64,000 nt of DNA, taken from Candidatus Latescibacterota bacterium (GTDB taxonomy: Bacteria > Latescibacterota > UBA2968 > UBA8231). The notes under the pieces are model-generated. The model searched no databases, was not told the origin of the DNA, and saw nothing but the letters and a program-made list of their open reading frames with translations. A program made the position numbers and the translations under genes. Positions 10,743-19,676 of this stretch are shown here, piece by piece. The DNA lies in assembly GCA_965217585.1 (NCBI GenBank), contig OZ244561.1, positions 2,816,001-2,880,000 of the forward strand. Reading direction: 5' to 3'. How positions within the stretch are numbered: the first letter of the stretch is position 1; the number at the start of each line of letters is the position of its first letter.

Positions 10743-12025
10743 GCCATTTGCTCCATGTCAATTTGGCCTGTAACTGCCGCTGAGATGAGTGCCGCTCGGC
10801 GCTCTTTGAGCAACACCGTGGTCCTTTCCGTAGCGTCGCGCAGCCCGTCCAACTTGCAGGTCTCATTCTCTATGTGGGCAACGATTTCGCGCTGCTCACT
10901 GAGCGGGGGTACAGGGAGTGAGACCGCGAAGAAGCCTTCTGGATAGAGGCGCAACCGGGATGACCACACACCCTTTGAGTATCTCGTTACCTCTTGAGCG
11001 AACGCCGACAAACGCACCAAGGCGTCGACATAACTCGGATCGAGGTGCGCTATAGGCTCATAGACGTTATAGGCCGGACTAACGATACCGTCTAAGGACG
11101 ACACACCCATCGCGCCCATCCATGCCCACATTGTATTGATTACGAGATCGCCCGAGAGGCAGATTTTGTATCCCTCTTTTGTCGCCGCCTCGAACATGTT
11201 GACGTCCTTTTCTGAACGAAGAGTCACGCCAGTGAGGTGCGACACAGTGAGGAGATCTTCTTCTCCCGTATCGGAACGTTCATCGCGTTCCCTGAACAAC
11301 CATCTTGCGCGTTCAGTTTCCCAATGCGCTGGAATTTCGCCAAGCCAAGGAATGCCGGAGTCACGGAGCGGGACGTTTGGGTTGATCCCACGGGAGACGG
11401 CGCGGGTGATGAGCGCTCGGCGCTTCTCGGCCAGAAACCTAAGCAGCCGCTCCTTCTCCGTCACCAGTGCATCCAGCCGCGCCGTCTCCCGGTCGAGGTA
11501 GTCGGCGATGGCGTGCTGTTTTGAAAGCGGCGGCACCGGCAACCTGACAGCCCCTATCTCAGATCTCGCTAGCCCAAAGCGAGTTACTCCATTCGCAGCA
11601 AGTTCCAGTTGCGTACATATCGGTTTTGCTTGGAGGCATCGGAGCAGGAATTCGCCTGCCAACTGGTGGCGGCGGGGACGAAGAAGCGCGAGGTGATAAC
11701 CGCATACAAGGTCGTCGGCTGTTTCCCGAACAAGCGCGGGGACACCTATATCATCCCATGATTCTGAATCCTTCGTGATGACAACATCGCCGATTTGTAA
11801 GCCGAACTTCTTGATTTCGTCCTCGGTTGCTGTTGCCTGCATGAAGTCGAGGCTCAAAAAAATAAAATCGTTGTTGTAAACGTCCGTGTAATTGCACAAT
11901 CGAACCGGTATTTCGTGGTCAACCGACAATTTATCGACGTTGCTCACCACATAATCAGTCGTTGCCCGGAGCGGCTGCACCTGCCACGACTCAGGCAGTG
12001 AGTTGACCCAGGCGAGGTGGCTCAC
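10724..12025 (-). CDS. hsdS: Type I RM specificity subunit
   Basis: Two TRDs, PPLSKQ/PPLSEQ conserved repeats, DSGIPWLGEIPAHW, ALISAAVTGQID. Confidence 0.93.
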   Translation of the reverse strand: MSHLAWVNSLPESWQVQPLRATTDYVVSNVDKLSVDHEIPVRLCNYTDVYNNDFIFLSLDFMQATATEDEIKKFGLQIGDVVITKDSESWDDIGVPALVRETADDLVCGYHLALLRPRRHQLAGEFLLRCLQAKPICTQLELAANGVTRFGLARSEIGAVRLPVPPLSKQHAIADYLDRETARLDALVTEKERLLRFLAEKRRALITRAVSRGINPNVPLRDSGIPWLGEIPAHWETERARWLFRERDERSDTGEEDLLTVSHLTGVTLRSEKDVNMFEAATKEGYKICLSGDLVINTMWAWMGAMGVSSLDGIVSPAYNVYEPIAHLDPSYVDALVRLSAFAQEVTRYSKGVWSSRLRLYPEGFFAVSLPVPPLSEQREIVAHIENETCKLDGLRDATERTTVLLKERRAALISAAVTGQIDMEQMAWKLPR

Positions 12026-14010
12026 TCGGTCACCTCTCTCAACAGTCGCATGATCTTCTCCTCCGCCTTCTTCAGATCCGCGTCAATCTGTTCCAGTGGC
12101 CGCGGCGGCGTGTACTTGTAGAAGTGGCGGTTGAAGTTGATCTCGTAGCCGACTTTGTCCTTGTCTCGGTCCATATAGGCGTCGGGGACATGAGGCGCTA
12201 CCTCGCGCTCGAAGTAGGCGTCGATGTCGTCTTTAAGCGGCACGTTCTCGAAGTCGCGCAGCGCGGTGTCAGGTTCGTAGCCTTTCTCCCGGCCATCTTT
12301 CCTGACCCGCTCGGCTTGCGGATCCTTCTCGGTGAAGACATCTCGGAAGAGCTTCTGTTCCGTCTTCTTCCAGCGCGATTGGCGCTCATGCAGGAGATCG
12401 GCGATGCTCTCCCACGTCGCATTCCAGTCGCACTTCGGCTCTCGTCCCAACGCCTTGTCTATGGCCTGCACATCGTCGAGCAAATACGGGCAGGCATCGA
12501 GAAAACGGGACTTGTCTTCTATGGTCATCTGGTAGCGCAAGCGCAGGGGTTGCTCCACGGTCACGCGTGTGTAGCCGAAGTCATCGTTGTCGAAAAGCTT
12601 GGAGCGTTCGCCATCCTCAAAGCGGCCATATAGCCGCACGATCTCCTCAATCTGCTCTGCGGCGATGTGGCGGCGCTTGTCGCCAAGGCTGCGCTTGTTG
12701 TCTTCACTCCCTCCCGCGGTCCACAAGTCGCGGGCGTCGAGAAGCTGGATTTTCCCCTGCCGCCGCTCCTCTTTGCGGTTGGTGACGATCCATACGTAGG
12801 TGCCGATGCCGGTGTTGTAGAACATCTGTTCCGGCAAGGCGATGATGGCTTCGAGCCAATCGTTTTCGATGATCCACTTGCGAATGTCGCTCTCGCCGGA
12901 GCCAGCACCGCCGGTAAAGAGCGGCGAGCCGCTGAACACGATGGCCAAGCGCGAGCCGTGCTTGTGCTCGTCTGGGCGTACTGGCTCAAACTTGTGGGTC
13001 ATATGCTGTAAGAAAAGCAGCGAGCCGTCATTCACTCGCGGGAGTCCAGCGCCGAAGCGGCCCTCGAATCCGAGCTTGTCGTGTTCTCTCTGGATATCAT
13101 TCTTCTGCCTCTTCCAGTCCACGCCGAAGGGCGGATTGGTGAGGAAATAGTCGAAGGTCTCACCCTCGAATTGATCGTCCGTAAGGCTGTCGCCGAAGCG
13201 GATGCTGTCGCCGCCGCCGTTGTGGTCAACCTGCTTCATCAACATGTCGGAGGCTGCGGTGGCAAAGGCGCGGTTGTTATAGTCCTGCCCATAGACGTAG
13301 AGCCGGGCAGCGCCGTGGTGCTCTCGCAGGTAGTTTTGCGCCTCGGCCAACATGCCGCCGGTGCCGCAAGCGGGGTCGAGGAGCTTACGCACGGTGCCGG
13401 GTGTGGCGAGCAGTTCGTCGTCGTGAATGAAGAGGATACTCACCATTAGCCGGATGACTTCGCGTGGCGTGAAGTGATCGCCCGCAGTCTCGTTCGCCAA
13501 CTCGTTGAAGCGGCGGATGAGATTCTCGAAGAGGAGTCCCATTTGCTCATTCGGAACTCTATCGGGGTGCAGGTCCACATCGCAGAACTTCGAGACGACG
13601 AGGTACAGAATGTTGGACTCGCGCATCTTCTCGATTTCGGTCTCAAAATCGAAACAGTCGAAGAAAATGCGGCGCACGTTGGCCGAAAAGCCTTGGATGT
13701 AGCTGACGAGGTGCGGGGCGATGTTGTCTGGATCGCCCTTGAGCTTCTCGAAATCGAGCGGCGAGTGGTTGTGGAAGCGCTGGCCGGCAGCCCTGTTCAG
13801 CCTAACGTCGAGTGCGTCGCCGTGGAGCCTGTCGCTCCAGCGGTCGTACTCGGACAAGACAGCGGACTTGGTCGGAGCGAGTACGCAGTCGAACCGCCGC
13901 AGCACGGTCATAGGCAGCATGACGCGCTCGTACTGCGGTGGGCGGTAGGGACCGCGCAGCAGGTCGGCGATCTGCCAGATCAGGTTGGCGAAGTAGCTGT
14001 GGTCAGGCAT
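12022..14010 (-). CDS. hsdM: Type I RM N6-adenine methyltransferase
   Basis: IWQIADLLRG, GDHFTPREVI, DPACGTGGML, NPPF, FYNTGI. Confidence 0.95.
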   Translation of the reverse strand: MPDHSYFANLIWQIADLLRGPYRPPQYERVMLPMTVLRRFDCVLAPTKSAVLSEYDRWSDRLHGDALDVRLNRAAGQRFHNHSPLDFEKLKGDPDNIAPHLVSYIQGFSANVRRIFFDCFDFETEIEKMRESNILYLVVSKFCDVDLHPDRVPNEQMGLLFENLIRRFNELANETAGDHFTPREVIRLMVSILFIHDDELLATPGTVRKLLDPACGTGGMLAEAQNYLREHHGAARLYVYGQDYNNRAFATAASDMLMKQVDHNGGGDSIRFGDSLTDDQFEGETFDYFLTNPPFGVDWKRQKNDIQREHDKLGFEGRFGAGLPRVNDGSLLFLQHMTHKFEPVRPDEHKHGSRLAIVFSGSPLFTGGAGSGESDIRKWIIENDWLEAIIALPEQMFYNTGIGTYVWIVTNRKEERRQGKIQLLDARDLWTAGGSEDNKRSLGDKRRHIAAEQIEEIVRLYGRFEDGERSKLFDNDDFGYTRVTVEQPLRLRYQMTIEDKSRFLDACPYLLDDVQAIDKALGREPKCDWNATWESIADLLHERQSRWKKTEQKLFRDVFTEKDPQAERVRKDGREKGYEPDTALRDFENVPLKDDIDAYFEREVAPHVPDAYMDRDKDKVGYEINFNRHFYKYTPPRPLEQIDADLKKAEEKIMRLLREVTE

Positions 14011-14090
14011 GAGTGCGTACGCTCAAAACAGGATTCAATCCGTATCAGGTGGGGGCAAAATTTCTTATCCGCGCTTCTGTCCATAGGCCG

Positions 14091-14477
14091 TCAAGGCTCC
14101 GAGAGGGATTCGACCTTTTCTTCAAGCCACGAGTTCAATTCGGTGAATCGGAATGAACTAGCTTCGAACATCCGCATGAAGAAGGCGTATGCCTTATCGT
14201 TGTCGCAGTTGATGAAGTGGCCGTTCATGCGCAGAAAGGTGTCGGTGACGAAAAAGGCGACCCGCTTATTGCCGTCCACGAATGCGTGATTGTTGGCTAG
14301 GCTCTCCATGAGAGCAGCCGCTTCTTGGATAAGCCCGTCGTAGTATCCAAGCTGGGGGCGCATGAGCGCAGAGGCGAGAGCACCTTCATCGCGGAGGCCC
14401 TGTGAGCCGCCAAATGCACTAATCAGGGCGTTGTGCATGGCGATGACTTCCTCGATGGTTGGGAAGTCATGGGTCAT
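14091..14477 (-). CDS. doc: Doc/Fic family toxin
   Basis: HAFVDGNKR motif, GLRDEGALASALMRP; 128 aa. Confidence 0.88.
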   Translation of the reverse strand: MTHDFPTIEEVIAMHNALISAFGGSQGLRDEGALASALMRPQLGYYDGLIQEAAALMESLANNHAFVDGNKRVAFFVTDTFLRMNGHFINCDNDKAYAFFMRMFEASSFRFTELNSWLEEKVESLSEP

Positions 14478-14704
14478 TTGGCCAACAATTCACCTAGGCG
14501 ACGATTTTTCTCGACACTGGCCTGAAAATGGGCCATAACCGAGGCCCGGCGCTTTTCCTGAGCGCGGTTTTCAACGTATTCCCGCATGGCCTCTTCCAGC
14601 ACCGCTTGGAAATGACGACCTTCCTTGCGGGCAATTTCGCGCACTGCGGCCAGCAACTCTGGCGAAGCCTGACTAGAAAATTTCTCTCGTAGCACAGCCA
14701 TCAC
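14474..14704 (-). CDS. Probable antitoxin (RHH-like) of Doc
   Basis: 76 aa, overlaps the doc start, ends RRLGELLAK as Doc partners often do. Confidence 0.7.
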   Translation of the reverse strand: MMAVLREKFSSQASPELLAAVREIARKEGRHFQAVLEEAMREYVENRAQEKRRASVMAHFQASVEKNRRLGELLAK

Positions 14705-14724
14705 TATACCCCCTTTTGTATCGT

Positions 14725-14765
14725 TATATAGAATTGTGGGAGCAATGTGTCAAGAAATATCTTGA
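14725..14765 (-). promoter_or_regulatory. Sigma70-like promoter with palindromic operator for the Doc TA operon
   Basis: Minus strand TTGACA (14753-14748), 17 nt, TATATA (14730-14725); palindrome TCAAGA-AATA-TCTTGA at 14750-14765. Confidence 0.55.
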
Positions 14766-14782
14766 TAGAAATGGGCAGAAAG

Positions 14783-15216
14783 CGTCGCAGAGCACCGCGA
14801 GAACCCGGACTGCGACGAGTGCGCGTGACCGTGCGAGGCCCGGCTGAGTTCCGCGCTGATTATGGCAGGGGCACGGCACCGGCCCGGCGGGTGTGGGGCG
14901 GTACTGATTAAATCCACATTCCCCGTCTAACTACGGGAGCCTCCGCGCTCGTCGAGCGAGCTTTGGCAGAACCCGGGTCTATTCACGGGGGGATACACCG
15001 CGCCCCTGCTGAGAATGGCGAACGGAAGAGACGCGAAGCCCTGTTGCTGATTCGCTGAGGAGCTTCCGGTGCTGAGTGGTTAGCCGCTATGTGGTTGAGC
15101 GGCTTTACCGGATAATTGGGTTATCATCCCTGAGGTCGCGCGTTACAGTGCGCGCCGCGTCTGGGCTATGCGCCGTCACCGGCGCAGTCGCACTTGCTTC
15201 CCTGTCTCTTCCGTTC
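14783..15216 (-). ncRNA. Candidate large structured ncRNA of unknown family downstream of the DIP1984-like gene
   Basis: No ORF. Perfect 13-bp helix 15204-15216/15020-15032; helix 14995-15009/14865-14879 extends via G-U only on the minus strand; 7-bp hairpin with GUGA (GNRA) loop 15169-15186; nested hairpins 15065-15112; terminal helix near 14783-14817. Confidence 0.65.
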
Positions 15217-15225
15217 TAGTTGTCT

Positions 15226-15762
15226 TTACTGTTCGTCAGCATATTCCACCTCTACCTCGAACGACGCGGCGCGGATCTGCCGATTGAGCTGGCGGAACTC
15301 GACGCGCGCCTCGTCGAGACGGGTGCGGCAGTCGTCGTAGGGCAACTCGTTGTCTTCGACGATGTCGCGTTCCTCTTTGTGGAGGACCCGCTCGTACGCG
15401 GAATCGACGACTTGGGTGTGTAGTTCTCCGAGGCGGTCGTTGAGCGCTTTGCGGGTCTCGAGGGCCTCAGTGAGGCTCATGTCGTCGCCCCCGTGTTCAA
15501 CGCGGTGCTCGAAGTTGGCACGCTGGATCGCGGCGTTCAGCTTGCGGCGTTTGAATTCGAGGGTGCGCAACTGGTCGCGTGCCTCGGAGACGCTGAATCC
15601 AGGTGCTGGCCGGCGCGAGAAGTCGTTGTCTCGACGGGGGAACAGATCTCGATTCTGGCGCGCCTCGGGCAGGCAGTCGCGCAGCGTCTTGATGCGGGCG
15701 TCGTACTCGCCGCGCAGTTCGAGGGCTTCGTAGAGTCTGATGGTATTTCTGGCTTCGGTCAT
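15226..15762 (-). CDS. DIP1984/septicolysin-like coiled-coil protein
   Basis: Internal duplication LYEALELR...LNAAIQRANF / LTEALETR...LNRQIRAASF; strong RBS AGGAGGTGA; family recognised by eye. Confidence 0.65.
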   Translation of the reverse strand: MTEARNTIRLYEALELRGEYDARIKTLRDCLPEARQNRDLFPRRDNDFSRRPAPGFSVSEARDQLRTLEFKRRKLNAAIQRANFEHRVEHGGDDMSLTEALETRKALNDRLGELHTQVVDSAYERVLHKEERDIVEDNELPYDDCRTRLDEARVEFRQLNRQIRAASFEVEVEYADEQ

Positions 15763-15986
15763 ACCTCACCTCCTTCTAGTTTCACCGGGAGATGAGTCGA
15801 AATTCGAGGGGACGTAGAACAGTCGCAACAGTTCAGCGACTTTTTTTGCGTGCGGGGGGAAAATTGCAATGCCGAAGAGCTCATTTGAGGGCAAAGAAGC
15901 TGTGATCTAGAAGAAAGGTCGCTAGTCAGCGAATTGTGGCCCGGTGCTCGTCAACCCTGACACGATTATTCCTGCAGAAGATGGTC

Positions 15987-16125
15987 TTATTGGCTTACAT
16001 GGATGAATTTGAACCATACATTGTCCAAGTGTCTGAAAATTGAATTCTGCGCGAGCCCGGATAGCCCACGGTGCTTTCCGGGTGAAACCGAGCAACAGAT
16101 TCGTGTCTAGGAGGAAACGTGTCAT
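15987..16125 (-). pseudogene. Internally deleted PIN-domain (VapC-like) gene
   Basis: N-terminus MTRFLLDTNLLLGF joined out of frame near 16040 to a PIN-like C-terminus FRHLDNVWFKFIHVSQ*. Confidence 0.55.
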
Positions 16126-16136
16126 AAAAATATCGC

Positions 16137-16824
16137 TCAATCGAGTTGGGCTAGGAGATCCTCGATGGGTTCATCGCCAGGCCATGTGCCCGCAAGCTCA
16201 ATAGGGTCAAAGCTCCCGATTTGCTTGCGTTGTACCGAGAACAGGTTATGCGATTTCTGGACCTCTATTGATGGCATTTCTTCGAAAACGACATCCTTTT
16301 CCAGCCGACCACTAATCCGGCGAGCCTCGATCAATCGCGGCTGCCCATTGGCCTTGAAATGCACCATTCCCTCAACGGTGGTCTGCTTGCCCCATAGAGG
16401 ACGCAAAGCCTCTACACTCAATGACGCGTCTAGCCGTCCAAAGAGTGCTGACTTCTGGCTCACTAGAAGGCGAAAGCGACCATTACCATGTTTGATCTCG
16501 ATGTTTGATCTCGTCAAGCCTGCCACTTACGATGAAAGACCTTGGAGTCGGGATGTCATTCAACCGCTCTTTGGCGTATGTGCAAGTAATGTCGTCCAGC
16601 GCGAATTGCCCATGCGCCGTGCCTTGAGGGATCATTTCATAGCGCACACCAGCAACTCCAGCCGCTTGCCTGAACTTGAGAATCGCTTCGAGAACCGAAC
16701 TGTCGAAATAGTCTCCAATTGGATTGTCGGTCTGGGTCTCATTGATCGATTGAGCGACCAGATCGAGCGCAGTTTCGTCTTCTTTCAGGCCGCTGATGCG
16801 GAGTTGGTAGTGTTGTGTTTTCAT
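16137..16824 (-). pseudogene. Hypothetical protein frameshifted by a 13-bp tandem duplication
   Basis: ATGTTTGATCTCG twice (16488-16500, 16501-16513). Removing one copy fuses ORFs 16483-16836 and 16137-16526 into ...SGRLDEIKHGNGRFRLL... Confidence 0.7.
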
Positions 16825-16872
16825 GGCGGGGCTCACTTTCCTAAGTTGCTGAGGTCCATTTCAAGAATAATA

Positions 16873-18633
16873 TCACTCCCGGATCGCTATGTGCAACTCC
16901 CGCAACTGCTCAGGCGACACTTCTCCCGGAGCGCCCATGAGCGGGTCCTGCGCATTCTGGTTCATCGGGAAGGCGATGACCTCCCGTATGTTCGGTTCGT
17001 CCGCCAGCAGCATGACGATACGGTCGATGCCGGGTGCGATGCCGCCGTGAGGCGGAGCGCCGTAGCGCAAGGCGCGGATCATGCCTCCGAACCTGCGATC
17101 CACTTCCCGCCGCGAGTGTCCGGCTATCTCGAACGCCTTGTACATGATGTCTGGTCTGTGATTGCGGATGGCACCGCTCGACAGTTCGAGGCCGTTGCAG
17201 ACGATGTCGTACTGATATGCCTTGATCTCCAGCGGCGGTTGGCTCTCCAGAGTAGCCATGCCACCCTGTGGCATGGAAAACGGATTGTGCGAAAAGGCCA
17301 CGCAAGCGCGTTCTGCGTCCCATTCGTACATGGGAAAATCGACGACCCAGCAGAATTCATAGCAGCCCTCCCGCCGCAAATCGAGCCGGTCTGCCAGGTG
17401 TAGGCGCAACCGTCCCGCTAGGGCCGCGGCCTCGGCTGGTGGCCCGGCTATAAAGAAAATGGCTGATCCCGGAACGGCTGCACACTTTTCGATAATGCGA
17501 CTACGCACGCTTTGTTCTAGGGCCGCGGCGATTGAGCCTGTGGCCTGTGCTCCGTTGATGAGGTACGCCAGTCCCTTGCCGCCCGCTTCTTTGACGAATG
17601 CTTCGAGGCTGTCGAAAAACGAGCGCGGCTGCGCCTCTAGCTCGGGAACGCACAGGGCGCGGACGACCCCTCCTGCTGCGACGATGTCCCTGAACAGCCT
17701 GAACGAAGATTCTGCGAAGATCGCGGAGAGATCTTGGATTTCGAGCCCGAAGCGCAGGTCTGGTTTGTCCGTGCCGAACCGCAGCATGGCGTCGGCGTGG
17801 GAGAGACGCGGGAACGGCGGCGCGGTCACTTCCCAATCGGTGAACTCGCGAAAGAGACCGGAAAAGAGTTCCTCGACCACAGCAAAGACATCCTCCTGCT
17901 CGACAAAGGCCATCTCGAAGTCGAGCTGGTAGAATTCGCCGGGGGAGCGGTCAGCGCGGGCATCTTCGTCGCGGAAGCAGGGCGCGATCTGGAAATAGCG
18001 ATCGAAGCCGGATACCATCAGCAACTGCTTGAACTGCTGCGGTGCCTGCGGCAGCGCGTAGAAGTGGCCGGGATAGAGCCGGCTTGGCACGAGGTAATCG
18101 CGCGCGCCTTCGGGTGAGCTGTTGGTGAGAATGGGCGTCTGGAACTCGGCAAAGCCCATGCCCGTCATGCGCCGTCTGATGCTGGCGATCACGTCCGAGC
18201 GGAGCTGAATGCGGCGGTGCAGCCCGGCCCGACGCAGGTCGAGGAAGCGATAGGACAATCGGGTGCTCTCGCCCACTTCGGGATCTTCGGCCACGGAAAA
18301 GGGGAGCGGCTCCGCCGACGAGAGCACTTCCAACTCGCGGACGGCGATTTCCACCTCTCCGGTTTTCATGGCGCTGTTGATGGTCGCAGGCGACCGTTCG
18401 CGTACGTCGCCTACGATGCGGATTACGGATTCGCGCGGGATTTTTGCCGCGGTTGCCGCAGCGTCATTCTCCGGCGAGATCACGAGCTGGGTGATGCCGT
18501 AGTGGTCGCGCAGATCTAGGAACAGTACGCCTCCGTGGTCCCTGCGGCGGTGGATCCAGCCGCTCAGGCGAATGGTTTGGCCGGCGTGGCGCTGGCGGAG
18601 TTCGCCACAGGTGTGCGTGCGATAGCGGTGCAT
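16873..18633 (-). CDS. aspS: Aspartate--tRNA ligase, probably non-discriminating Asp/Asn type
   Basis: [55 protein letters not shown]. Confidence 0.96.
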
Positions 18634-18644
18634 GGTAATCTCCT

Positions 18645-18686
18645 AAAAACAGAAAACCCGCCGCGATGCGTGTTCGCGACGGGTTT
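18645..18686 (-). terminator. Intrinsic terminator (attenuator 3:4 helix) upstream of aspS
   Basis: Minus strand AAACCCGTCGCGA-ACACGCA-TCGCGGCGGGTTT then TCTGTTTTT, just 5' of the aspS RBS AGGAG. Confidence 0.8.
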
Positions 18687-18715
18687 GGATTCTCAGATTG
18701 GGTTGGAGTCAGTCG

Positions 18716-18784
18716 TCAGAACACGCGCAATGAGGCCAGCGGGTTATTATTATTCTGCGTGCGGTCATTCTGACGAGTCATCAT
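18716..18784 (-). CDS. Asn-rich leader peptide of aspS (MMTRQNDRTQNNNNPLASLRVF)
   Basis: 22-codon ORF with AAT AAT AAT AAC run, followed by antiterminator and terminator. Confidence 0.75.
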   Translation of the reverse strand: MMTRQNDRTQNNNNPLASLRVF

Positions 18785-18792
18785 GGTCGTCT

Positions 18793-18820
18793 AAGATAGA
18801 GGAACGCCGAATTCCGTCAA
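18793..18820 (-). promoter_or_regulatory. Sigma70-like promoter of the aspS leader
   Basis: Minus strand TTGACG, 16 nt, TATCTT, then 8 nt to the leader ATG. Confidence 0.5.
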
Positions 18821-18871
18821 GCCGAGCTAGGCCGCGCTTGCTGGCCCCGTGCGCTTGCTTTGAGAATCCAA

Positions 18872-18901
18872 TGTGACTACAATTATCTCAATGTAGTTAC
18901 A
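18872..18901 (+). promoter_or_regulatory. Inverted-repeat operator of the phd/vapC operon
   Basis: TGTGACTACA-N10-TGTAGTTACA (9/10 match) just before the RBS. Confidence 0.55.
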
Positions 18902-18912
18902 AGGAGATCGCA

Positions 18913-19179
18913 ATGAACGCATCCGTACGCGACCTGAAGAGCAGGTTGTCGCGCTACCTTCAGCAAGTCCAGCGGGGAGAGACGGTCGTCGTAACTTCGA
19001 GGGGGAAGCCCATCGCCCGCCTCGTGCCGCTGCCGTCCCTCCCGTTGGAAGAGCGGCTGGCAACCTTGCCGGGGGTCAATGCCGGGACGGGGGAAAAACC
19101 GAGAGGTGCGACGCACCCCGTGCGCGTCAAACCCGGAGAGAAAAGCGTTGCGGACATCGTGGTGGAAGAGCGACGGTGA
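18913..19179 (+). CDS. Phd/YefM family antitoxin
   Basis: SVRDLKSRLSRYLQQVQRGETVVVTSRGKPIARLVP. Confidence 0.9.
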   Translation: MNASVRDLKSRLSRYLQQVQRGETVVVTSRGKPIARLVPLPSLPLEERLATLPGVNAGTGEKPRGATHPVRVKPGEKSVADIVVEERR

Positions 19180-19676
19180 TCCTCTTTCTCGACACATCGG
19201 CTCTCGTCAAGCTGTACGTCGAGGAGGCCGACTCCGATACGGTGCGTGGCTGGGTGGATGTGGCCGAGGAAATCGCCTGCCAATGGCTCGCATACGTGGA
19301 GGCGCGATCCGCTTTGGCTGCCAAACGGCGTTTGGGCGACCTGTCCGATGCAGAGTTGGCGGGATGCAAGAAGGAGCTGGAGCAGGATTGGGAGCGATAT
19401 CACCGTGTCGCGGTCACCCAGACCCTGCTGCGACGAGCCGGTGCTCTGAGCGAGCAACTCGGCGTACGCGCCTATGACAGTGTTCACCTTGCGGGGGCTG
19501 AGTATCTGCAATCCTCGCTAGGAGTGCCGATAACCTTCGGGTCCTTCGACCGCCGACAGGTCGATGCTGCCGCCCGGCTTGGAATGCCCATCGCACCGGT
19601 CGATGACGATCCGGACAAGGGCGAAGGCAATAGCCAAACCCTAACTAGCCCCCCAACAAAAGGACAACTCCCATGA
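19176..19676 (+). CDS. vapC: VapC/PIN toxin
   Basis: LFLDTSALVKLYVEE, RAYDSVHLA, SFDRR; GTGA overlap with the antitoxin. Confidence 0.88.
   Translation: MILFLDTSALVKLYVEEADSDTVRGWVDVAEEIACQWLAYVEARSALAAKRRLGDLSDAELAGCKKELEQDWERYHRVAVTQTLLRRAGALSEQLGVRAYDSVHLAGAEYLQSSLGVPITFGSFDRRQVDAAARLGMPIAPVDDDPDKGEGNSQTLTSPPTKGQLP

Follow-up and report, generated by a model that had tools for sequence, protein, structure and literature searches.

An asparagine-codon leader peptide and a putative transcription attenuator upstream of an accessory aspartyl-tRNA synthetase gene in Latescibacterota

When a short open reading frame (ORF) rich in asparagine (Asn) codons is found directly upstream of a gene for an aspartyl-tRNA synthetase (AspRS), the question arises of why an enzyme named for aspartate (Asp) would stand behind codons for another amino acid. 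This arrangement is found on the minus strand of the DNA analyzed here, a stretch of 64,000 nucleotides (nt), referred to as the window, from contig OZ244561.1 (positions 2,816,001 to 2,880,000) of a Candidatus Latescibacterota bacterium, where the whole element fits into the 280 nt that separate a divergently oriented Phd/PIN toxin-antitoxin pair from an aspS gene encoding 586 amino acids (aa). An earlier note on this DNA had taken the gene for the aspS of the cell; it is instead an accessory paralog, since a second AspRS of 595 aa, also bacterial-type and 45% identical, is encoded elsewhere on the contig. The copy in the window is therefore given the working name aspS2 and its product is called AspRS2, while AspRS1 designates the housekeeping paralog. 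Comparative analysis makes it highly probable that the element is a ribosome-mediated leader-peptide transcription attenuator with Asn regulatory codons, which would control aspS2. That the benefit of this control lies in the supply of Asn-tRNA(Asn) through AspRS2 is a less firmly held proposal, which we nevertheless regard as probable.

The features of the element are collected in Table 1. The coordinates given in the earlier note all proved right, as did its promoter, leader ORF, run of Asn codons, three helices and 13-bp terminator, when the sequence was re-read, scanned for consensus sites and folded. The consensus scan returned two promoter-like sites where 0.2 were expected and three terminator-like sites where 0.7 were expected, and it recovered the same promoter and terminator. 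Because the -10 hexamer ends 8 nt ahead of the leader ATG, the leader mRNA would be leaderless or nearly so. Asn occupies 5 of the 22 leader codons, as the run of four is preceded by an additional Asn-Asp pair at codons 6-7. A search of positions 18300-19200 with Rfam cmscan at E-values up to 10 returned only chance-level matches (mir-1182, CrfA and HOXA11-AS1_5), and neither a T-box nor a leader family was among them. The CrfA match joined the 33 nt of the terminator hairpin at 18654-18686 to the 3' end of this Caulobacter small RNA (sRNA) at 20.1 bits, below the gathering threshold of 38, and was taken as generic similarity between terminators.

The switch proposed for this leader depends on alternative pairings of four regions. 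In the 1:2 helix, UCGUCAGAA (18776-18768) is complementary to UUCUGACGA (18721-18713), and in the core of the 2:3 helix, GCGUGUUC (18726-18719) is complementary to GAACACGC (18675-18668). This core had been recognized before, and its pairing stood, although the helix is longer than had been supposed: folding of 18731-18667 gave a 13-bp helix with one bulge between GCGUGUUCUGACG (18726-18714) and CGUCG-C-GAACACGC (18681-18668), with an energy of -19.1 kcal/mol, on the assumption that the mRNA upstream of 18731 is covered by a ribosome on the Asn codons and that region 4 has not yet been transcribed. This antiterminator takes up 8 of the 13 nt of the terminator 5' arm. The 159-nt leader as a whole folds into the 1:2 and 3:4 helices at -46.8 kcal/mol (z = -2.93; 1 of 200 shuffled sequences was as stable), and the terminator alone contributes a hairpin of -21.4 kcal/mol. 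The leader stop codon lies inside region 2, and a ribosome placed there in silico would cover the 5' strand of the antiterminator. As modelled, this layout of ribosome and helices satisfies the classical attenuation model.

Table 1. Features of the putative attenuator and of the regulated gene (positions within the window)
Feature	Positions	Strand	Description
Promoter	18793..18820	-	TTGACG 18820-18815, spacer 16 nt, TATCTT 18798-18793; consensus scan
Leader ORF MMTRQNDRTQNNNNPLASLRVF	18716..18784	-	22 codons plus stop; ATG 18784-18782, TGA 18718-18716; no Shine-Dalgarno sequence
Regulatory codons AAU AAU AAU AAC (Asn 11-14)	18743..18754	-	read from sequence
Region 1 UCGUCAGAA	18768..18776	-	5' strand of 1:2 helix (anti-antiterminator or pause hairpin); fold
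Region 2	18713..18726	-	pairs with region 1 (18721-18713) or region 3 (18726-18714); contains leader stop
Region 3	18668..18681	-	antiterminator 3' strand; overlaps terminator 5' arm and loop
Intrinsic terminator (3:4)	18645..18686	-	13-bp stem 18686-18674/18666-18654, 7-nt loop, tract UUUUCUGUUUUU
AGGAG Shine-Dalgarno (18644-18640) and aspS2 (ATG 18633)	16873..18644	-	586-aa bacterial-type AspRS

In the mechanism that we propose, transcription would start at the leader AUG or a few nt from it. If the leader were not translated, region 1 would pair with region 2, the 3:4 terminator would form, and transcription would end some 15 nt short of the ribosome-binding site of aspS2. The outcome would be the same when Asn-tRNA(Asn) is plentiful, in which case the translating ribosome would reach the UGA in region 2 and mask this region, again allowing the terminator to form. 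When Asn-tRNA(Asn) is scarce, the ribosome would stall at the AAU AAU AAU AAC codons, and the free region 2 would pair with region 3, blocking the 5' arm of the terminator. Under this condition, the 2:3 pairing would let RNA polymerase read through into aspS2.

The conservation of this arrangement was examined in up to 520 nt upstream of each aspS2 ortholog, where an ATG-initiated ORF of 10-60 codons was sought that contained an 8-codon window with at least three Asn codons and at least four Asn and Asp codons together. Such an Asn-rich ORF was present in all 31 distinct full-length upstream regions, which represent eight genera, and a strong terminator followed the leader of each ortholog (two more genomes with aspS2 were left out, since their upstream regions were cut by a contig end). 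The same criterion was matched by none of 13 regions upstream of housekeeping AspRS genes and by none of 73 regions upstream of AspRS genes from other phyla (53-62% identical), and a looser one by none of 30 regions upstream of asnS. As a random control, 520-nt windows were taken from the genome that contains the window, and 8 of 5000 contained an ORF of this kind. This genome, a single 7.3-Mb contig with 59.5% GC, holds 47 runs of at least four Asn/Asp codons with at least three Asn over its six frames, 17 of them in short frames; among these 17, the window's leader is the sole run that has a start codon and is then followed by a strong terminator. A look-alike run at genome position 3918708 was rejected as an attenuator, having no start codon and lying in an AT-rich promoter region. 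Moreover, a covariance model of the element as found in the window (type 1) detected one copy per genome in 32 of the 76 genomes of the order, and all strong matches were placed beside aspS2 or its remnant.

The leader peptides themselves belong to at least four unrelated types, whose only shared feature is the presence of Asn runs. One of these types reads ...QNNNNPL..LRVF, and others are MTFRHKHTARAFSHNNDDNNPAIRARWRWP, MTQIRANNNQDHNRTSTGGTAPAG, MTNHKNRALNNSNSTNNDNSPMALLRVL and MRTTYFTSLIHDDNNPNTHVTRTRFRVP; Asn runs are likewise kept in MLTRQKDRTCNNQANSGNNNPLAPLRVF, MMTRQNACTHNNPANPGDNNPPAPLRVF and MQTLRNTLNNRLNADANRRRAGRSVF. The promoter is also conserved: a TTGAC[AG] hexamer, separated by 16 to 18 nt from an xAxxxT hexamer, was found in 23 of 26 distinct type-1 contexts, and in most of them the -10 ends 8 nt before the ATG. 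Two attenuators in series were observed in 15 genomes and a single one in another 15, while in one genome (G005) the second attenuator is accompanied by what is left of the first. The second unit of a tandem uses another leader, such as MTFRHKHTARAFSHNNDDNNPAIRARWRWP, and has its own 1:2, 2:3 and 3:4 helices in the same architecture (z = -3.77). In the tandem loci, an AGGAG is present after the first terminator and serves the second leader, whereas in the window it serves aspS2 directly, and the single unit of the window looks as if the second attenuator had been deleted. Indirectly, the AGGAG ahead of the second leader and the conserved promoter close to the first ATG favour translation of the leaders.

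Compensatory changes were searched for in the aligned helices. Over 24 distinct type-1 sequences, the antiterminator was 98.3% paired and showed two U-A to C-G compensatory changes (in the loci L020 and L135), a result matched by 5 of 500 shuffles and compared with 9-55% pairing in slid controls; the type-1 terminator stem was nearly invariant. In 16 type-2 sequences, the antiterminator (98.1% paired) and the terminator (98.2% paired) each showed one compensatory pair. Covariation is therefore modest, and it is located where the model would need it. Altogether, the trp/his/pheST-type layout that the earlier note had put forward, with aspS depending on the decoding of Asn codons, is supported by the 31 orthologs, the clean controls, the compensatory changes in the antiterminator and the geometry of the switch. 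The note had also suggested looking for conserved Asn/Asp-rich ORFs and for covarying helices in relatives: the ORFs were found to be rich in Asn, Asp not being enriched in them, and compensatory changes were seen at a few positions of the antiterminator and the type-2 terminator and at none of the 1:2 helix.

It may be asked whether the leaders sense Asn in particular. Asn accounts for 17.6% of the codons of 45 distinct leader ORFs, compared with 3.0% in the long ORFs of the genome, whereas Asp is not enriched (5.1% versus 6.4%) and tyrosine (Tyr) is depleted (13 of 1259 codons). These figures bear on the possibility that the element is a real ribosome-dependent attenuator without Asn specificity, in which slow decoding would report general translation capacity or the coupling of transcription to translation. 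As a variant, the leader could report all NAY codons read by tRNAs with GUN anticodons (Asn, Asp, histidine (His) and Tyr), for instance through a position-34 modification. Next to the Asn runs there are indeed often codons for His, Asp, Tyr, serine and threonine (SHNNDDNN, IHDDNN, NNNQDHN and QYNPTN are examples), His is more frequent than in the genome (4.1% versus 2.2%), and AAU, the less used Asn codon, has a larger share of Asn codons in the leaders (54% versus 35%). However, only Asn is strongly and consistently enriched, and the flanking codons are expected from the turnover of Asn codons, because all of them are single-base neighbours of AAY. We regard a non-specific sensor as unlikely, and a further argument against it is provided by a second synthetase gene of this lineage.

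Two weak matches of the covariance model, both in genomes without aspS2, were located directly upstream of glnS, where a leader with glutamine (Gln) codons, MNALYQQQRQRSYDNARRRFLHW or MNALYQQQRQQQRIYDNARRRFLHW, is followed by a terminator with a similar loop (L153, G017:C94:9600-10400; L154, G015:C149:2750-3550). A scan of 60 further glnS upstream regions revealed a Gln-run leader with a terminator in G018 and G023, which belong to the same genus, as well as in five genomes from a different genus (these loci being L206, L196, L204, L208, L210, L200 and L215). Leaders such as MNALYQQQRQQQRIYDNARRRFLHW, MMTMQPQQQQPQPIQGNPQRRFSHR and MTVCQRQQQQQPMPPPAGG are each followed by an intrinsic terminator. 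The crude Gln criterion was matched by 12 of the 60 regions, of which 7 were convincing and 5 contained longer ORFs without a Gln run, 4 of these also without a terminator. Thus, at least nine genomes in all carry a Gln-codon leader with a terminator on glnS; no Gln-codon leader was found upstream of the glnS of the window's own genome. The arrangement looks like a Gln-sensing attenuator on the gene for glutaminyl-tRNA synthetase (GlnRS), of which, to our knowledge, none has been described. Since the leaders of the same family use Gln runs on glnS, they argue for amino-acid-specific sensing. They also suggest that in this lineage the codons of a leader correspond to the tRNA that the synthetase encoded behind it serves, so that the Asn identity of the aspS2 leaders would be meaningful.

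The leaders might alternatively be dual sensors of Asp and Asn, matching both tRNA substrates of a non-discriminating AspRS. Asp codons do occur within second-type runs (NNDDNN, NNNDNN and HDDNN) and beside Asn in type 1 (QND); their overall frequency, as given above, is no higher than in the genome, GAY is one mutation away from AAY, and several main runs contain no Asp, among them the NNNN of the window, which makes a dual sensor somewhat less probable still than a non-specific one. More improbable again is that the short ORF and its hairpin form an independent small gene, for an Asn-rich peptide or an sRNA, with aspS2 transcribed separately. The element does have its own conserved promoter, and other bacteria have leader peptides and prematurely ended attenuator RNAs that can act in trans, according to the accessible text of PMC7968998 and PMC7298713. 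However, an aspS2 promoter would have no room, because only about 20 nt, holding just the AGGAG, separate the U-tract from the aspS2 start. In addition, the element occurs only beside aspS2 and in one copy per genome, the peptide varies between types while the Asn runs and the switch architecture are kept, and the antiterminator covaries. Finally, GC-rich genomes are full of hairpins and the 1:2 helix shows no covariation, but a chance pairing of a terminator-like hairpin with an ORF in a divergent intergenic region is effectively refuted by the comparative data, the element being present at every ortholog, unique in its genome and absent from the control sets.

If the element is an Asn-codon attenuator, what would the cell gain from inducing an aspartyl enzyme? 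It had been anticipated that the genome would lack asnS and contain gatCAB. Profile searches showed that asparaginyl-tRNA synthetase (AsnRS) is in fact present (470.7 bits against a cut-off of 342.6), and that the missing functions are the asparagine synthetases. AsnA had no match in the genome, the best AsnB-type match remained below the cut-off (52.9 against 267.1 bits), and the Asn_synthase model of Pfam matched only stretches of 57-83 residues in other proteins. GlnRS (695 bits) and GatB (564.6 bits) are both present, gatB being the amidotransferase gene that the search covered. The single tRNA-Asn(GUU) has a U1-A72 pair and tRNA-Asp has G1-C72; U1-A72 of tRNA-Asn is a requirement for the GatCAB-dependent, two-step formation of Asn-tRNA (the accessible text of PMC4206432). 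Over the order, GatB was present in 73 and GlnRS in 72 of the 76 genomes, and AsnRS exceeded the cut-off in 66. A different, longer type of AsnRS, scoring 515-607 bits compared with about 470 elsewhere, was noted in G015, G017, G023 and G050; the first three of these have no aspS2 and carry the Gln leader on glnS.

AspRS2 comprises OB anticodon-binding, GAD and class II catalytic domains and is bacterial-type. The His in the RRRDxGG motif of the anticodon-binding domain, which the earlier note had read as typical of non-discriminating AspRS, is indeed shared by AspRS2 (RRRDHGG) with the solved Asp/Asn enzymes of Pseudomonas aeruginosa and mycobacteria (4wj3, 4rmf and 4o2d), whereas the discriminating Thermus thermophilus enzyme (6hhv/1efw) has RRRDLGG. 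The motif was nevertheless rejected as a mark of AspRS2, since both paralogs carry the His. The best match of the AspRS2 anticodon-binding domain is the solved P. aeruginosa Asp/Asn enzyme. From the Asn codons of the leaders and the gene inventory, we infer that AspRS2 would be non-discriminating and would aspartylate tRNA(Asn). In this scheme, AspRS2 would charge tRNA(Asn) with Asp and GatCAB would amidate it, so that Asn-tRNA(Asn) would rise on induction whatever the level of free asparagine, in a genome without asparagine synthetase. aspS2 was commoner in genomes without an AsnB-family match (25 of 40, 15 having no aspS2) than in those with one (8 of 36, 28 having no aspS2), a trend that is descriptive only, as the genomes are kin and TIGR01536 also matches paralogs other than AsnB. 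The leaders of glnS and aspS2 lead us to lean, by a narrower margin of confidence than for the pay-off itself, towards a general view in which synthetase genes of this lineage would be under their own leader-peptide attenuators, each naming the tRNA that is served (Gln on glnS, Asn on the spare AspRS). The Asn leader would then label AspRS2 as a tRNA(Asn) enzyme, representing the inducible committed step of tRNA-dependent Asn synthesis.

Several observations count against an Asn-responsive attenuator on aspS2 or against the role proposed for its product. The figure of 31 out of 31 overstates the number of independent events, because the sequences are kin, and the independent support comes down to the few leader types that are unrelated to one another. 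With helices that hardly vary and low divergence, covariation is thin. The 1:2 helix, 87.5% paired in the 24 type-1 sequences and 86-88% over both types, showed no compensatory change in either type, and by eye no clear antiterminator was seen in the type-3 locus L138. In trpL the regulatory codons are part of region 1; here the 1:2 hairpin carries the Asn codons in its loop. The leader ORF has no Shine-Dalgarno sequence, and its translation would depend on leaderless initiation, which is presumed for this lineage. aspS2 has been lost or has decayed in several genomes, as a fragment with two TGA codons (G022), a 5'-truncated copy (G091) or a copy with one TAG (G076). As for specificity, the housekeeping AspRS1 has the same His as AspRS2, and at the second position, which we take to bear on tRNA(Asn) recognition, Gly is found in the solved Asp/Asn enzymes and in AspRS1, whereas AspRS2 has Ala. 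Moreover, nearly all genomes of the order, with or without aspS2, have GatB and GlnRS; AspRS1 may therefore already supply Asp-tRNA(Asn), which leaves no obvious need for aspS2. AspRS1 may also be non-discriminating, in which case AspRS2 would best be seen as an inducible booster.

The distribution of aspS2 is that of an accessory gene. Within the genus, 21 of 31 genomes carry it, and within the order 33 of 76, spread over 8 of 18 genera, with orthologs that are 64-96% identical. Beyond the order, its closest counterparts are the AspRS of alphaproteobacteria and planctomycetes (57-62% identity), to which AspRS2 is much nearer than to AspRS1 (45%). In a quick tree of 39 rows, 8 were in a wrong frame (L132, L108, L025, L061, L105, L112, L117 and L120) and are disregarded; among the other 31, it separated AspRS2 (8 rows, support 100), AspRS1 (9 rows, support 99, with a long stem) and the alphaproteobacterial/planctomycete enzymes (13 rows, support 98) into distinct clades joined by an unresolved fork; therefore, no donor of AspRS2 is claimed. 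Around the locus lie the Phd/YefM antitoxin and PIN toxin genes (18913-19676, plus strand), a Fic/DOC protein gene (14091-14477, minus strand), the gene for the type I restriction-modification methylase HsdM (12022-14010, minus strand) and that for a DUF6847 protein (region 12022-16836), a mobile or defence-type neighbourhood that fits the patchy, accessory distribution of aspS2.

Some loci and transcripts deserve separate mention. In L155 (G091:C1:3148300-3151800), an intact type-1 attenuator with the leader MNNNPTKTGDNNPPDLLRVF precedes an aspS2 remnant that has no anticodon-binding domain and then loses its frame. In two genomes of genus g19 (L136, 1-1414, and L137), a full-length LysRS-like gene runs about 45 codons beyond its usual ...IRDVIPFP end, and the Asn-rich leader (..VDNNGDNNNQGNNNRTS..) shares the reading frame of this 3' extension, so that a ribosome completing the LysRS-like gene would also translate the regulatory codons; in a third g19 genome the Asn leader is free-standing. 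Metatranscriptome contigs (four runs, depth 2-3) include one of 193 nt identical to 18003-18195 and one of 168 nt with 1 difference covering 18501-18668. These contigs give neither transcript ends nor strand, DNA carry-over is possible, and the second does not count as bridging the U-tract, since the part of it that lies upstream is shorter than 31 letters; no conclusion on expression or habitat is drawn from them.

The mechanism proposed for aspS2 is known, and what is new lies in its specificity, its target and its context: the attenuator is lineage-specific, often tandem and probably leaderless. Full-text searches found no Asn-codon leader and no attenuation of aspS, with the qualification that most subscription journals lie outside their coverage, so that absence from print is not proven; the accessible text of one paper predicts a "tRNA synthetase leader" for Shewanella aspS, without a claim of a leader peptide. 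If the reading is true, this would be the first asparagine-sensing attenuator and the first attenuator on aspS, using a leaderless ORF and often present as a tandem pair. Attenuation would thereby reach an amino acid that is new to it and a phylum that metagenomes alone have revealed, as well as a synthetase whose regulatory codons differ from its nominal amino acid, and the codon content of leaders would allow the tRNA specificity of synthetase paralogs to be predicted with no more than the sequence in hand. According to the accessible part of a review (PMC2330236), understanding the direct and indirect pathways requires knowing their regulation. For bacteria that have retained the indirect route (AspRS and GatCAB) beside the direct one (AsnRS), the aspS2 locus offers a testable regulatory link in the balance of the two: a ribosome stalled on Asn codons would switch on an additional AspRS.

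How does this element compare with known systems? In the pheST attenuator of E. coli, a leader peptide with phenylalanine codons precedes the synthetase operon, and this system is alike in placing leader-peptide attenuation on an aminoacyl-tRNA synthetase gene. The pheST codons are those of the cognate amino acid of the enzyme, whereas the aspS2 leader has Asn codons before an aspartyl enzyme, which make sense only if AspRS2 serves tRNA(Asn). The closest functional analogue is perhaps to be sought in Clostridium acetobutylicum, in which Saad et al. (2012, 2013) reportedly described T-box control of the indirect Asn pathway. As far as the accessible text of PMC4574755 goes, this system also couples the indirect route to Asn-tRNA(Asn) with the state of tRNA(Asn) in the presence of redundant routes; however, its sensor is a tRNA-binding riboswitch, whereas here it would be a ribosome translating Asn codons, no T-box having been detected with Rfam.

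The likeness to the classical attenuators is structural. The trp and his attenuators of E. coli and, in the accessible text of PMC13236596, mycobacterial ilvB1 resemble the aspS2 element in several ways: their short leader ORF contains clustered regulatory codons and ends within the antiterminator 5' strand or beside it, their 1:2, 2:3 and 3:4 helices are mutually exclusive (the 1:2 helix being a predicted one here), and the gene under control is directly preceded by a Rho-independent terminator. The aspS2 element differs from them in its Asn codons, in their position in the 1:2 loop, in the lack of a Shine-Dalgarno sequence with a start 8 nt after the -10, in regulating a synthetase paralog instead of a biosynthetic operon, and in the series of two unlike attenuators present in about half of the genomes. 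With regard to the pathway, Thermus, Deinococcus and Bdellovibrio, as presented in the accessible portions of PMC4206432 and PMC2330236, are alike in having GlnRS, AsnRS and GatCAB (of which gatB was seen here), no AsnA/AsnB and a U1-A72 pair in tRNA-Asn, and those portions report no attenuator. Thermus and Deinococcus also have two AspRS genes; their extra AspRS is archaeal-type, whereas here both enzymes are bacterial-type and carry GAD. The leaderless polycysteine short ORFs of mycobacteria, as described in the accessible text of bioRxiv 10.1101/834739, come close in another respect, since in them, too, a leaderless short ORF with repeated codons for a single amino acid governs the expression of what follows, in response to cysteine. 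The aspS2 leader differs from them in its amino acid and its phylum, and in an intrinsic terminator and an antiterminator that are evident in its sequence.

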